64,000 nucleotides of DNA from Candidatus Caenarcanales bacterium (GCA_030065015.1 JASJDU010000020.1:1978-65977); one strand, 5' to 3'. Shown: positions 55,547 through 58,515, counted from the stretch's first letter. Notes: generated by a model not told the origin, from the letters alone. Made by a program: numbers and translations.

Positions 55547-56518
55547 TTGTGCTTGATCACAAACTCTAAATCAAAAATGGAAAATTTCAATTTCAAATAT
55601 TCAAATAATGTTTCTCAAAAAGTTATTGAGTTTTTCAACAATGCAAAAACAAGAAATGATTATCAATATAATGCTTTCAAGGATCTCAAATATTTAGACT
55701 CAAAAACAAAGTCAAAAGCAAGACAATTCGGTGGAAAGTTTAACCAAAGCAATGATACTTACGAAGTAGGAAATTTTAAGGTTTTCAAAATCGATCTAAA
55801 TGGTAATGATGAAGGAGAAGAATATTATGTTGAGGAAAAATTAATACGAGAATGGTTACCCAAAGCGGTTGCCGTTTACGATTTTGATGGTAGCAAAGGT
55901 GGAACCAGTTTAGACATATATAAAAGCTTTAAAGCAATTACTAACAATACAACGCAGTCACCAGTTGCTTTGGCAAACTCTGATGGGAAAAGCGCGACAG
56001 AAAATCCACAAGAAAGAAAAGTTATAAAAAAAGGTCAAGATCTCAATGGTAGTTCAACATCTGAAAACATTGCACAAAGTGCCACAGAAATAGTTTCAGT
56101 AGGAAACAAGCAAGCTCAACAAGACATAAGTATTAATCAACAAGTTATTCCCCAAGAACAATTTCAGATTCAACCTGGAAGATCAAATACAGAAAGAAAT
56201 CAAACAAAAGAAAAGAACGCTTCAGTTAGTGTAGATAGGAAGAAAAAAGCTGAAGTGATGAGGCTAATCAATTCAAATATTGCGAGCATCAATAAAGCAA
56301 TTGATAGTACTGAAGTCAATTCACTCAACCCTTTTGATCATATTGCAAATACTACAACTGGAGACAATTGGTGGAATCCTTTTCACCGAAGTGACACTAG
56401 CTTAGGAACATTAAAGCTAAATAAACCCTTAATCCAAGAAAAGCAAAAATTAGAACAGATCTTCAATCAATTAAATTCAGATGAATTGACAACAGAACAA
56501 GCCTTAGAAAAGATATAA
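55547..56518 (+). CDS. Hypothetical N/Q/S/K-rich protein; possibly the first part of a larger frame-interrupted gene
   Basis: 323 aa. The likely start is MENFNFK at 55577. A +1 change in the gaaaag run near 56505-56515 would fuse it to the next frame. Confidence 0.4.
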   Translation: MCLITNSKSKMENFNFKYSNNVSQKVIEFFNNAKTRNDYQYNAFKDLKYLDSKTKSKARQFGGKFNQSNDTYEVGNFKVFKIDLNGNDEGEEYYVEEKLIREWLPKAVAVYDFDGSKGGTSLDIYKSFKAITNNTTQSPVALANSDGKSATENPQERKVIKKGQDLNGSSTSENIAQSATEIVSVGNKQAQQDISINQQVIPQEQFQIQPGRSNTERNQTKEKNASVSVDRKKKAEVMRLINSNIASINKAIDSTEVNSLNPFDHIANTTTGDNWWNPFHRSDTSLGTLKLNKPLIQEKQKLEQIFNQLNSDELTTEQALEKI

Positions 56519-57128
56519 AGAAATTTCGAAAAGTTCAAACCAAGAAGTTCTAAAAGCAGCAAAAGAAGTTTCTCAGGGTGCAAAAACCGGTGCAATTGTT
56601 GCCAAAACAACTAGAAATACTGCTGCTGTTACCGGAGCCGTCGTTGCATCAATAATAGCAGCACCAGCTGTCATAAGTATCTCAGGCTCAGTAGTCACTG
56701 CTGGAGGCTTTACCGGCAAAGCGGCACTTCTGACCAAAGGAGGATGGATCCTACAGGGAGGTGCTATTATCTGGGGCTCAACATCTGCGGGAATTGGAGC
56801 TGTATCTAACTTATCATCAGAAGCATTTTATGATGATTCATCCAGAGCTGCTTACAAAAAACAATTCAAGTCTCAGTTTGGAACATTCAATGATCTTAGA
56901 AGTGATTTTCTGGGTGGGGCACAAGCCGGTGCATTAACAACTGCAAATATTGGAATAGCAAGCAAACTATCTTACATATCAGGTTCGCAAGTTTTTGGAA
57001 CTGCAGGATCGGCATTCATAACAAGTTCAGTCAGTGAACCTGGGGGTGCTATTTTCAATACAGACTCGAAAAAAACTTTGGACAGAGACTTACTTCTATT
57101 GGTACAAGTACAGTTGCGGGAGGATTAG
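56508..57128 (+). pseudogene. Open frame of 207 codons with no ATG/GTG/TTG start, encoding a bilobed hydrophobic Gly/Ala/Ser-rich domain; it joins the following frame through an A7 run
   Basis: This is my own translation of frame 0: ...TGAVVASIIAAPAVISISGSVVTAGGFTGKAALLTKGGWILQGGAIIWGSTSAGIGAVSNL.... It is not in the ORF track because it has no start codon. At the A7 run (57069-57075) the reading continues without a stop in the -1 frame (57038..57622), and the amino-acid composition stays the same across the junction (GTSTVAGGLGSS...). Confidence 0.45.
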
Positions 57129-57622
57129 GTAGCTCTAGACTGGGACAAAGCTTAGCCGGAGATTTAGGTATTGGACTCACAACTGCCACTATCGACTCTG
57201 CTGCCTCTAATCCAAAACTTGATGATAAATTTCTAATTGATATTGGAAGTAAATTACCTGCAGAACTAGCTTATACCATGACAGGACGTAGGCCAATGAC
57301 AGGACCTATCAATAGTCAAAGCACTAACAATCCTTCAAATCCTCTATCACCAAGTCCAGCTTCTTCAAACACCAATAATCCAATAAAACTAGAGTCAGAT
57401 CTAAAAAAACTGGAGGAAAGTCATGATGAGTTTATCCCAAATCTTTCTAATCGACCAACTGAGGATGATGGAAACAATGTATTACTAGATCGTTCAAATT
57501 CAGACAATTCAACAACACCAGACTCAGCTCAAAGCGATCAGGCCAAATCACCTTGGGAGTTTTTTCAAAGCCTTCATAATCAAACAACTAAAACTGAGAA
57601 TGATGAAAGCAATACATTATAG
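57038..57622 (+). pseudogene. Downstream frame of the same interrupted gene (Gly-rich, then S/T/N/P-rich tail); the track lists only the 57278..57622 part
   Basis: The frame is open from 57038. Its composition continues the Gly/Ala/Ser/Thr pattern of the upstream frame, and it ends in a disordered S/N/P/T-rich C-terminus. Confidence 0.4.
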
Positions 57623-57795
57623 GCAACCCCAATAAATGAAAATGTTCAGAACGAATATGTTGGCTTACATAAGCTTTTTCTTTATTCTTCCTATTTACAA
57701 TCAATATGCTTTTGTTACAAAAATAATCAAACACCCCAAGCCCTCAACTTTAGTTGTAGCCTTTTTGGGATACTTATTAATCGATTTACAAGCAT

Positions 57796-58515
57796 ATGCA
57801 TATTTCAGGAACACAGAGACCTAATATCAATAATTTAGATCAAGCAAAAAAACCAAAAACTAAAAAGGTGAAACTTAAATTTACCTTTCATCCAAAGGAA
57901 AATGAACTATGTGACAAAGATAAAAATAATGAAATATCTCCGACAACAAAACTTCTAAGAGAAACACCTGAAGGTTTACAATTTCATACCATCTGTAAGG
58001 GCAGAATAAATAGAACAATTCCAAGAATGTTCTTACAATTGCCTCACATTGATGGAAAATCAGTAATGAATAAGTGGTGTAAAGTAACAACATTCTTTCA
58101 GAATCCTGTTAGCTTTAACGAAAAAGGGAAGTGGGATAGAGTTGAAATTAAGGTACGAAAAAAAAGAATAGTCTTTAATATTCAAAAAGTGAAAAATCCT
58201 GAGTCCCACAAGCCGCAGATTAGTCAGGTTAATCTAATGGCAAATAGCTCTAATGGTATGTTTGCAAGGATCCTGAATCCAAGAGTTACCGAAAGAGCAG
58301 TTAAAGTAGTAGCAGAAAAAGTTGATGTAAACTGTACATTTATTGTTCCAAAAAACAGCGATCCACAAGCGGTTGCAATAAATCCAGAGAACCAAAGTAC
58401 AATTCCTTTACCTTCTCAAACAATAAGCTTCATCACATCACCAGCAGATTTATTAACACCTATAGCCATTGGGCTAACAATGATTCAAAAACTATCTCCA
58501 TTCCACCGGAAATAA
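57796..58515 (+). CDS. Hypothetical protein
   Basis: 239 aa. I recognise no domain. Confidence 0.35.
   Translation: MHISGTQRPNINNLDQAKKPKTKKVKLKFTFHPKENELCDKDKNNEISPTTKLLRETPEGLQFHTICKGRINRTIPRMFLQLPHIDGKSVMNKWCKVTTFFQNPVSFNEKGKWDRVEIKVRKKRIVFNIQKVKNPESHKPQISQVNLMANSSNGMFARILNPRVTERAVKVVAEKVDVNCTFIVPKNSDPQAVAINPENQSTIPLPSQTISFITSPADLLTPIAIGLTMIQKLSPFHRK

Follow-up and report, generated by a model that had tools for sequence, protein, structure and literature searches.

Between the convergent genes sufE and sufS of a Candidatus Caenarcanales bacterium (GCA_030065015.1) lie three head-to-tail open reading frames (A, B, and C), which an earlier note, made from the DNA alone, read as one gene broken twice. 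That note left open whether the locus is a phase-variable or programmed-frameshift gene, a recent pseudogene, a homopolymer sequencing error, or three unusual genes. The questions considered here are whether the three frames were ever one gene, if so what broke it, and what its product may have done. "The window" refers throughout to the whole stretch of DNA analyzed, 64,000 nt (64 kb) of contig JASJDU010000020.1.

The locus between sufE and sufS

The features discussed are, in order (all coordinates are those of the window):

54989..55411, + strand: sufE, left flank, convergent with sufS (Pfam SufE, 3.7e-48)
55577..56518, + strand: frame A, 312 N-terminal codons and a premature TAA stop at 56516-18 (P0001; NCBI QNJ31_04870)
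56507..56512, + strand: break 1, GAAAAG, one surplus nucleotide relative to homologues, phase 2 to phase 0
56508..57074, + strand: meaningful part of frame B, 189 codons, startless
57069..57075, + strand: break 2, A7 run, one A short of the homologue-matching reading, phase 0 to phase 2
57074..57622, + strand: frame C, where the conserved Gly-rich region ends (…GDLGIGLTTATIDS…) before a short acidic tail rich in S, N, and P, stop TAG at 57620-22
57636..57824, + strand: 62-aa ORF with hydrophobic stretches, coding score 0.07, doubtful as a gene
57796..58515, + strand: 239-aa orphan ORF (NCBI QNJ31_04885), coding score 0.195, singleton cluster
58530..59795, - strand: sufS (class-V aminotransferase/cysteine desulfurase), right flank (Pfam Aminotran_5, 1.3e-149)

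The two ORFs downstream of frame C had been described as having no nameable family, and family searches for them indeed came back empty: the shorter, which is outside the NCBI locus-tag series, has no match in Pfam or NCBIfam, and the longer has none in Pfam, NCBIfam, PADLOC, or PHROG and was not found beside the homologues described below. No convincing flanking repeats marking an insertion were found in the window, and a promoter and terminator scan gave no signal above shuffled expectation. The window also encodes purL, leuA, ilvB, and hisF. NCBI organism names for the proteins are Candidatus Caenarcaniphilales bacterium and Candidatus Melainabacteria bacterium; a scan of the genome collection with SufS found relatives at 55-61% identity, in other phyla only, and a literature search found no paper naming the assembly.

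One gene in three frames

From stop to stop, the open frames run 55544..56518 (A, phase 2), 56508..57128 (B, phase 0), and 57038..57622 (C, phase 2), matching those first described; A and C share a phase, and B is +1 relative to both. The start of frame A had been placed at TTG 55547, which is not the start: ATG 55577 (MENFNF...) is, in agreement with the NCBI 313-aa call and with the homologues. Frame A includes an alpha/beta N-domain (~residues 14-100), a Q/N/S-rich linker, a conserved NSLNPFDHIANTTTGDNWWNP motif, and a coiled coil. Frame B continues with a K-rich helix, then a hydrophobic segment of 33 aa in which one Pro is invariant, and finally an amphipathic region rich in G, A, S, and T. 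The ORF called in frame C is only its Met-initiated tail (57278 or 57296..57622; P0002/P0022, NCBI QNJ31_04880), the Met-preceded part being limited to the last 108-114 codons.

Frame B had been said to have no start codon of any kind. This holds for its ~190 meaningful codons, which include no ATG, GTG, or TTG (chance ~1e-4, computed from window codon frequencies), but not for the whole open frame: there is a TTG at 57078, past the A7 run. All three frames nevertheless look like coding sequence. Codon-usage log-likelihoods per codon are 0.32, 0.36, and 0.28 for A, B, and C, vs. 0.277 +/- 0.045 for 22 good window genes, and in a codon-usage scan the best-scoring frame changes over at ~56480 and ~57050. 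The phase of A is interrupted by eight stops in 56519-57038; read with the two shifts repaired, the gene has no further stop in ~681 codons, and its codon usage is intact. The stretch 56519..57277 is the largest internal non-ORF stretch of the window, and the sole one that breaks a gene.

Both junctions could be located closely. At break 1 the frame change is confined to 56508-56515. The earlier note had suggested that a 1-nt change in the GAAAAG run would join A to B, and removal of one A from it does so, yielding ...EQALERYKEISK..., which aligns without gaps to a 1018-aa homologue (P0003). The A7 run proved likewise to be the B/C junction, as had been proposed: with one A added (A8) it reads ...TDSKKNFGQR..., in which DSKKNFGQR aligns gapless with DPNKSFSQK (P0003) and SPNKQLWQR (the sister-species alleles L085 and L087), the family-invariant K and Q being in register with both homologues. 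Runs of A or T of at least 7 nt are common in the 64-kb window (51), and 46 of them are within intact ORFs; break 2 is the only one at a frame break. Both breaks are identical in a second assembly, the Candidatus Caenarcaniphilales MAG GCA_029976255.1, whose contig JARPNU010001822.1 corresponds to window positions 55095..64000 with one mismatch and no gaps; this assembly, one SNP apart, is perhaps not wholly independent. Protein searches turned up no intact allele from the window species.

The homologues settle the matter of gene number. Polypeptides in which the three frames are contiguous do exist, in two distant homologues: P0003 aligns with the repaired gene at 30% over 328 columns, straight across both junctions, and the sister-species protein, whose intact form is a 1626-aa ORF in L087, is also collinear across both. 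Frame A is homologous to P0004, L087, and P0003, and frame B collinear with P0003 and L085/L087. Judged from reading frame, codon usage, and homology, 55577..57622 is a single gene of ~681 codons (~2 kb) broken by two small indels, as the earlier note had it.

A small, fast-evolving protein family

That the product belongs to no obvious family was borne out: neither the repaired protein nor its homologues matched any family in Pfam, NCBIfam, PADLOC, or PHROGs. When the fusion, P0003, or the core alignment served as query in word-indexed protein searches, only self matches came back; a scan of the genome collection with the fusion gave no match, viral contigs and plasmids held no relatives, and there are no paralogues within the window. 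By these comparisons the family is small, undescribed, and fast-evolving, and has so far been found only in non-photosynthetic cyanobacteria (Caenarcaniphilales/Melainabacteria MAGs).

Its members share an order of parts. First comes a conserved N-terminal alpha/beta domain, which a low-complexity linker connects to the invariant motif NPFD...GDNWWNP; a coiled coil is next, and behind it lie a long hydrophobic segment (33-46 aa) with a Pro at its center and ~150 aa of amphipathic sequence rich in G, A, S, and T. The C-terminal end is exchangeable between members. The window gene finishes in a short acidic tail and P0003 in a helical region of 440 aa; the sister-species protein has three FHA-like repeats together with a protease of calpain type (Peptidase_C2 and FHA both exceed their Pfam thresholds in L087). 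The surroundings of the gene change from genome to genome, the sister-species neighbors being a response regulator and a photolyase-related gene.

Of the bilobed hydrophobic region first described, one lobe stands, a strong segment of 33 aa (repaired residues 347-379, KD peak 2.17) with the invariant Pro at its center; by hydropathy, the second, Gly-rich lobe falls below a TM-like threshold. AlphaFold prediction, which the earlier note had suggested for the fusion, left the hydrophobic region without a confident model (mean pLDDT 38.6 for the repaired protein, from a three-sequence alignment).

Intact and frameshifted alleles in a sister species

The sister-species ortholog has a poly-A tract of its own, CCACTAC(A)nGCAG, with n = 6 in L085, n = 7 in the intact L087, and n = 8 in L091-L095, from five samples. 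The first shift in L085 is a 7-nt tandem duplication missing in L087, and such a duplication is found independently in L086; L096 has an extra G at codon 1235, and repeat-number changes that keep the frame are present as well. These breaks are at other positions in the gene than those of the window. P0003, L087, P0013, and P0017 have no frame breaks. An 18.5-kb comparison showed indels in no other gene, and divergence peaks locally at the ortholog, 79 of the 124 mismatches falling within 2 kb. High local divergence is typical of surface or interaction genes. As read from these alleles, the family counterpart occurs naturally in intact and frameshifted versions, and the A6/A7/A8 variants together with the other frameshifts mean that its inactivation recurs.

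Some candidates were set aside. The 1321-aa ORFs P0008 and P0012 are uninformative as truncated alleles, their contigs beginning within the repeat region; the first break in L096 is a 10-N scaffold gap; and the L085/L087 divergence does not point to DGR-like adenine-targeted mutation, the substitutions not being A-specific.

How the gene may have come to be broken

The reading that fits best, to which we assign a probability of roughly 0.7, is that the window carries a recently inactivated (OFF) allele of one gene, with two real indels, and that the gene, whose product probably included a membrane module, is dispensable or counter-selected. Of the four explanations first listed, the recent pseudogene agrees best with the collinear homologues, with the breaks being reproduced in GCA_029976255.1, and with a frame B that is not independently translatable. 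The indels would be an extra base in GAAAAG (56507-56512) and a lost A at 57069-57075 (A8 to A7). With these two in place the ribosome would halt at 56516-18, and the hydrophobic middle, having no start codon, would not be made. Inactivation is probably recent: the 681 codons contain no further stop, and codon usage has stayed intact. Under some conditions the gene may be dispensable or counter-selected, so that natural populations would acquire loss-of-function indels again and again, more often at short poly-A tracts than elsewhere.

The alternatives differ in what they make of the two junctions. In favor of three or more separate small genes, gene callers annotate a 313-aa ORF and a 108/114-aa ORF; but B is startless over ~190 codons, and each homologue is one polypeptide that is collinear with A, B, and C, which together exclude three unusual genes for practical purposes. 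That the gene is really intact, and that sequencing or assembly introduced an error at either junction or at both, is very unlikely. In favor of error, break 2 coincides with a homopolymer, indel errors can occur in MAGs, and the gap in the related scaffold L096 is an example of an artefactual break; however, break 1 is an A4 run only, GCA_029976255.1 is identical at both junctions with its one SNP elsewhere, and comparable sister-species lesions are repeated in independent samples (L085/L086; L091-L095). The A/T runs that leave their ORFs intact also argue against error. Programmed recoding would need the ribosome to shift by +1 (or -2) close to 56508-56515, and a -1 slip, ribosomal or transcriptional, to occur on A7. 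At break 2, P-site tRNA-Lys could re-pair one base back on AAA AAA A to give ...SKKNFGQ..., and the A-run is compatible with low-level slippage; at break 1, AAG (56510-12) could formally slip by -2 onto AAA (56508-10). Two shifts that together regain the original phase are found in the window allele and in L085 alike, a coincidence with an estimated chance of ~25%. Against recoding, the homologues do not share the shift positions (P0003 and L087 are unbroken, and L085 shifts elsewhere, its first shift being a duplication, hence a mutation rather than a signal), break 1 (GAA AAG ATA TAA) is without a known +1 slippery codon pair, the scan found neither a stimulatory structure nor a hairpin of terminator type, and with two inefficient events in a row hardly any product would result. 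Given the lack of conserved positions and of a slippery motif at the first site, a programmed frameshift is highly improbable.

Phase variation is a minority possibility that we consider unlikely, although the A6/A7/A8 polymorphism of the sister-species ortholog lends it indirect support. A contingency gene would be turned ON and OFF reversibly by slipped-strand changes in repeats, above all in A7, the window having caught the OFF state. Frameshift pseudogenes at homopolymer tracts are known from AT-rich genomes; OFF alleles of contingency loci are known in Neisseria, Haemophilus, and Campylobacter, as are poly-A tracts in Buchnera. The window gene resembles these in that a short poly-A indel breaks an otherwise intact ORF of a fast-evolving accessory gene, with one break exactly at a homopolymer. 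In the sister species, moreover, tract length departs from the intact length in both directions among natural samples, and the ortholog adds in-frame repeat-number changes, the 7-nt tandem duplication, and its high divergence. On the other side, a change in the A7 tract does not suffice: restoring the window allele would take two independent events, and break 1 (A4) is not hypermutable. Other OFF lesions also fall outside repeats. Every OFF allele combines two lesions, of which one is not in a repeat. A/T tracts of 7-8 nt are common throughout this genome, both window-species assemblies have A7, and the sister-species tract lengths are tied to distinct haplotypes in several samples, being stably inherited rather than rapidly or visibly switching. 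The host, too, is a non-photosynthetic cyanobacterium and not a host-adapted pathogen.

Possible function

The recently inactivated gene would have encoded a protein whose best lead is its coiled-coil and hydrophobic module. The earlier note had thought of a membrane-inserting protein, and this draws modest support from a stretch of ~100 aa resembling YopB/AopB. A profile search of the PDB gave a single match, AopB (E = 0.004), and an hhalign comparison with a YopB/AopB/SctE alignment, using three sequences per alignment, gave a probability of 79.5% (score 46.2, E = 1.5e-5) over 102 columns covering the first hydrophobic segment only; among 30 composition-preserving shuffles the highest score was 32.5. 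As in SctE proteins (YopB/AopB/PopB; Pfam SseC-like), a coiled-coil helix and a Lys-rich stretch precede a long Ala/Gly/Val/Ile-rich hydrophobic segment. As in T3SS translocators, the module may serve to anchor the protein in a membrane or insert it there, and would then present or deliver the variable C-terminal module.

The likeness has its bounds. Outside those ~100 aa nothing relates the protein to SctE, neither its N-domain and NPFD...WWNP motif nor its Gly-rich region and the enzymatic modules that vary at the C-terminus, and the family's three members have no match to SctE/SseC-like families in Pfam (E up to 10) or to any in NCBIfam. Where SctE operons have the arrangement lcrH-yopB-yopD, the window gene adjoins no LcrH/SycD-type chaperone, tip, or SctB gene, its neighbors being sufE, the orphan ORFs, and sufS. 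There is no signal peptide, secretion-system neighbor, or chaperone gene at the window locus, and no T3SS gene in the 64-kb window, which has one T2SSE-type ATPase (8339..9748).

Modular "polymorphic" effectors and toxins offer a second comparison: the N-terminal half is conserved while the C-termini of the three members are unrelated, genomic context varies by genome, and allelic divergence is high. Unlike polymorphic toxins, however, the family has no recognized trafficking domain (LXG, PAAR, RHS, VENN, etc.) and no immunity-gene candidate common to its loci; calpain and FHA are not classical toxin modules, and secretion of the family is only putative. Two further suggestions of the earlier note fared less well. 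Like chlamydial Inc proteins, the product has a long hydrophobic domain between hydrophilic, partly disordered regions, but an inclusion-membrane-type effector it cannot be, because the organism is a Caenarcaniphilales cyanobacterium and not a chlamydia; its hydrophobic domain is also central, ~350 residues from the N-terminus, and strongly hydrophobic in one lobe only. Inc proteins, which chlamydiae secrete through their T3SS, have two TM-length lobes of ~20 aa joined by a short loop. Nor are glycine-zipper motifs enriched in the hydrophobic region: the window core has three GxxxG motifs vs. 4.8 expected and one zipper vs. 3.9 expected (2000 shuffles).

A bolder and rather unlikely proposal would join these threads: a membrane-inserting modular family specific to Vampirovibrionia/Melainabacteria, with a translocator-like coiled-coil and hydrophobic core and exchangeable C-terminal effectors, for instance a calpain-type protease with FHA repeats, acting on cell contact, encoded at a contingency-type locus of non-photosynthetic cyanobacteria that is switched ON and OFF in natural populations by indels at short poly-A tracts. 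The cells contacted might then be prey, host, or competitors, and the window would be one OFF state.

Implications

What had been three "hypothetical" fragments is, in the preferred reading, one gene probably inactivated by two indels. Its middle third, the putative membrane module, is absent from present protein catalogs because no gene caller can start frame B. The comparison defines a small unannotated family in the non-photosynthetic cyanobacteria, about whose dealings with other cells very little is known, and this family loses its frame repeatedly in nature, twice at one poly-A tract in the sister species. If its translocator-like core and variable C-terminal modules do mediate insertion or delivery, the family would provide a handle on the cell interactions of these bacteria, and an example of on/off population heterogeneity beyond the classical pathogens.

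Coding evidence for a broken gene

The interval between sufE and sufS holds three successive, overlapping open frames on the + strand, here called A, B, and C, as the earlier note had described:

54989..55411, +, sufE (Pfam SufE, 3.7e-48)
55544..56518, +, frame A, stop to stop, phase 2
56508..57128, +, frame B, stop to stop, phase 0
57038..57622, +, frame C, stop to stop, phase 2
58530..59795, -, sufS (Pfam Aminotran_5, 1.3e-149)

Frames A and C share a phase, relative to which B lies at +1. Frame A had been started at a TTG (55547); its real start is the ATG at 55577. The absence of start codons in frame B holds: none of its 190 codons before an A7 run at 57069-57075 is ATG, GTG, or TTG (a TTG first occurs at 57078), an absence with a chance of ~1e-4 at the codon frequencies of the window, and the middle part of the gene is not translatable by itself. 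In a codon-usage log-likelihood with 22 solid window genes as the training set, frames A, B, and C score 0.32, 0.36, and 0.28 per codon (training genes, 0.277 +/- 0.045), and the best-scoring frame changes at ~56480 and ~57050. The frame-A phase has eight stops within 56519-57038. The A/B switch is confined to 56508-56515, within ...GAA AAG ATA TAA, and B passes into C at the A7 run. Here too lies the window's longest internal non-ORF stretch (56519..57277), the only one that breaks a gene.

Homologs across both junctions

With the repaired 682-aa fusion as query, HMMER run in full over 1.84 billion representative proteins matched four: P0001 (313 aa, frame A) and P0002 (the tail of C), the two annotated fragments of this locus; P0004, a 95-aa N-terminal homolog (51% identity); and P0003, an intact 1018-aa homolog that aligns at 30% identity over 328 columns (fusion residues 224 to 540), unbroken across both junctions. 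Two sister-species contigs were added, L085 via P0004 and L087 by scanning metagenomes with the core alignment; the family ORF in L087 is intact, at 1626 aa. Aligned three ways, the sequences are collinear around the junctions:

A/B junction: window (repaired) EQALE-RYKEISKSSN; P0003 KQSLKEFGKIVRNSN
B/C junction: window (repaired) DSKKNFGQR; P0003 DPNKSFSQK; L085/L087 SPNKQLWQR

The A/B alignment is without gaps once one A is deleted from GAAAAG, and the B/C alignment once one A is added to A7, with K and Q invariant. Since the homologs are collinear across the repaired junctions, the ancestral gene read through, and frames A, B, and C are one gene carrying two real indels. The window allele has one surplus base at 56507-56512 and lacks one A at 57069-57075. 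The proposal of a single gene broken twice, at the A7 run and by a 1-nt change in gaaaag, is thus borne out at both sites, and the alternative of three unusual genes is excluded, because frame B is start-less and P0003 and L087 are contiguous over both junctions.

Architecture and contexts of the family

As had been suspected, the product has no obvious family: neither the repaired protein nor any other member has a match in Pfam, NCBIfam, PADLOC, or PHROG. No relatives were found on plasmids or viral contigs, and no paralog in the window. The members share, in order:

N-terminal domain, ~100 aa: helix-helix, four strands, helix-helix (AlphaFold, pLDDT 67)
low-complexity linker
invariant motif, NS(W/L)N(P/L)FD...TxG...W
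coiled coil (pLDDT 72-87 in the full AlphaFold model)
hydrophobic segment, 33-46 aa, with an invariant Pro
G/A/S/T-rich sequence, ~150 aa, ending ...GD(L/V)GIG.TT

Structure comparison of the N-terminal model gave no fold match. A bilobed hydrophobic segment had been described; by hydropathy the first lobe is strongly hydrophobic, the second not. Met is absent from the whole hydrophobic Gly-rich module (window 56508..57074), as it is from the homologous parts of P0003 and L087. The C-terminus is not shared: the window gene ends in a 136-aa acidic S/N/P tail, P0003 in 440 helical residues, and L087 has three FHA-like repeats and a calpain-type protease (Peptidase_C2 31.3 bits, FHA 22.1 bits, both exceeding Pfam thresholds).

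Genomic contexts are unrelated as well: sufE/sufS for the window gene, a response regulator and a photolyase-related gene for L085/L087, and for P0003 a small membrane-protein gene (MKRFLKYSF...PPYIPWP) with its 5' end in duplicate. The duplication is a 118-nt direct repeat, 91% identical, flanking P0003 (78-195 and 3556-3673 of contig L083), with the upstream copy truncated. The P0003 locus looks like an insertion that duplicated the 5' end of its target.

NCBI names the locus proteins [quoted passage not shown] and a sister-species protein [quoted passage not shown]. Caenarcaniphilales are an order of non-photosynthetic cyanobacteria (Melainabacteria/Vampirovibrionia; PMC4040986). The unannotated family is new, and so far confined to Melainabacteria-type MAGs. 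The source genome is not of the reduced intracellular type; the window encodes purL, leuA, ilvB, hisF, and RNR.

A possible translocator-like core

A family profile run against all PDB sequences gave a single match below E = 1, to the Aeromonas type III secretion translocator AopB (3wxx_B, E = 0.004), spanning the coiled coil and first hydrophobic segment. With a YopB/AopB/SctE alignment assembled from plasmid records, hhalign of the family core (both alignments shallow) gave a probability of 79.5%, E = 1.5e-5, and a score of 46.2 over 102 columns. Thirty shuffles preserving regional composition scored at most 32.5 and reversed profiles 21-22, so the similarity exceeds composition. The likeness to SctE, the translocon subunit, is short (these 102 columns) and consists of a membrane-inserting segment preceded by a coiled coil; no other defining feature of SctE is seen. 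No member matches an SctE family model, no SctE-type chaperone or partner genes adjoin, and no injectisome is in view. We therefore treat the relationship as one of possibly working like SctE, not of membership. A translocator-like core, if real, would be new. The intact protein is predicted to be modular and membrane-anchored or membrane-inserting. Of the comparisons in the earlier note, a glycine-zipper pore former is disfavored, zipper motifs not being enriched, and membership among the Inc (inclusion-membrane) effectors is excluded by taxonomy.

Recurrent frame loss in a sister species

Over 18.5 kb, L085 and L087 share 99.1% identity, yet the family gene differs sharply. The L085 copy falls into three frames (phases 2, 0, 2), owing to a tandem duplication of 7 nt (CTAAAGC CTAAAGC) and to one A fewer in a poly-A tract (A6, against A7 in L087); blind repair yields exactly the intact L087 reading. 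The duplication is also present in L086, which comes from another sample. In five more contigs, each of a different sample, the poly-A tract is A8, leaving a 172-aa truncated ORF ending ...TTKKSS*, and in L096, a more divergent scaffold, codon 1235 has a surplus G. At least three records (L087, P0013, P0017) have intact forms. Frame has thus been lost at least three independent times in the sister species, twice at one poly-A tract; frameshift alleles recur in this related species, and break positions are not conserved among homologs. This recurrent on/off polymorphism is new.

Four of the nine L085/L087 indels are in the family gene, four in its upstream spacer, and one ~4.8 kb downstream, with none in any other gene checked; 79 of 124 mismatches lie in a 2-kb part of the gene itself (codon differences: 48 non-synonymous, 25 synonymous; clustered, no adenine bias). 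From this concentration and the repeated lesions, the family is a hotspot of variation. The clustered divergence suggests recombination or diversifying selection; a DGR-like origin was rejected, as the pattern is not adenine-specific.

Divergence inside the gene is ~4% (L085 11000-13000 vs. L087 9750-11750), in genomes otherwise ~99.9% identical, and codon differences cluster at aa 298-504 and 855-1004. The Thr/Asn/Pro/Lys/Glu-rich linker varies in number of an 18-nt repeat (L085 10560-10760; L087 9300-9480; P0017); the proteins have 1626, 1634 (repaired), and 1641 aa, and many metagenome contigs end within the linker. The four spacer indels (L085 9553-9889 vs. L087 8295-8643), between near-identical genomes, consist of A- and T-runs that differ in length and of a 13-nt indel, and could affect the promoter.

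Other ORFs in the window

The ORF at 57796..58515 (239 aa, acceptable coding score of 0.195, Lys-rich N-terminus, hydrophobic C-terminal stretch) has, as earlier stated, no nameable family: it is without a match in the four libraries and a singleton among ~15 billion proteins. It overlaps a doubtful 62-aa ORF (57636..57824) by 29 nt. At 59988..60512, a 174-aa ORF without a family has an N-terminal hydrophobic segment, then extreme Lys/Glu/Arg-rich sequence, and contains two A8 runs. A large orphan 5 kb upstream of the broken gene (47039..50113, 1024 aa, no Pfam family) has weak P-loop-like matches around residues 263-312 (FtsE/Hda models; PADLOC mad8, E = 0.003). An unusual fusion at 11759..12778 joins SAICAR synthetase (PurC) to a C-terminal PurS domain. 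The 496-aa SecY ORF (27420..28910) has its Pfam match beginning at residue 91, which points to an extended N-terminus or a start called wrongly.

Interpretation

We infer that inactivation of the window allele, now OFF, is recent, because its 681 codons contain no stop apart from the effect of the two shifts and its codon usage is undisturbed. Sequencing or assembly error at the junctions is very unlikely: although one break is at a homopolymer, 46 of the 51 A or T runs of at least 7 nt in the window are inside intact ORFs of at least 100 aa, only 57069-57075 coincides with a frame break, and window 55095..64000 is reproduced, both lesions included, by contig JARPNU010001822.1 of a second assembly (GCA_029976255.1), without gaps and with one mismatch (55165, in sufE). 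Programmed recoding, which the earlier note had allowed for, is more improbable still, since the shift sites are not conserved and the L085 duplication is mutational in nature.

Reversible phase variation finds its main support in the A6/A7/A8 series of the sister-species ortholog, but the window allele requires two events, one of them outside any hypermutable tract, and we consider it unlikely here. The window allele (55544..57622) and L085 (9929..14911) both pass through phases 2, 0, and 2, regaining the original phase at the second lesion; the chance of this in both is roughly 1 in 4.

A doubly frameshifted, homopolymer-associated gene, the verified core of these results, is ordinary in kind. 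Inactivation of the family would seem to be tolerated, or favored under some conditions. That it is a contingency-type family of membrane-inserting modular effectors in non-photosynthetic cyanobacteria is a speculative extension, with the odds well against it. If the P0003 locus is an insertion of the kind its flanking repeats resemble, the family would be mobile.
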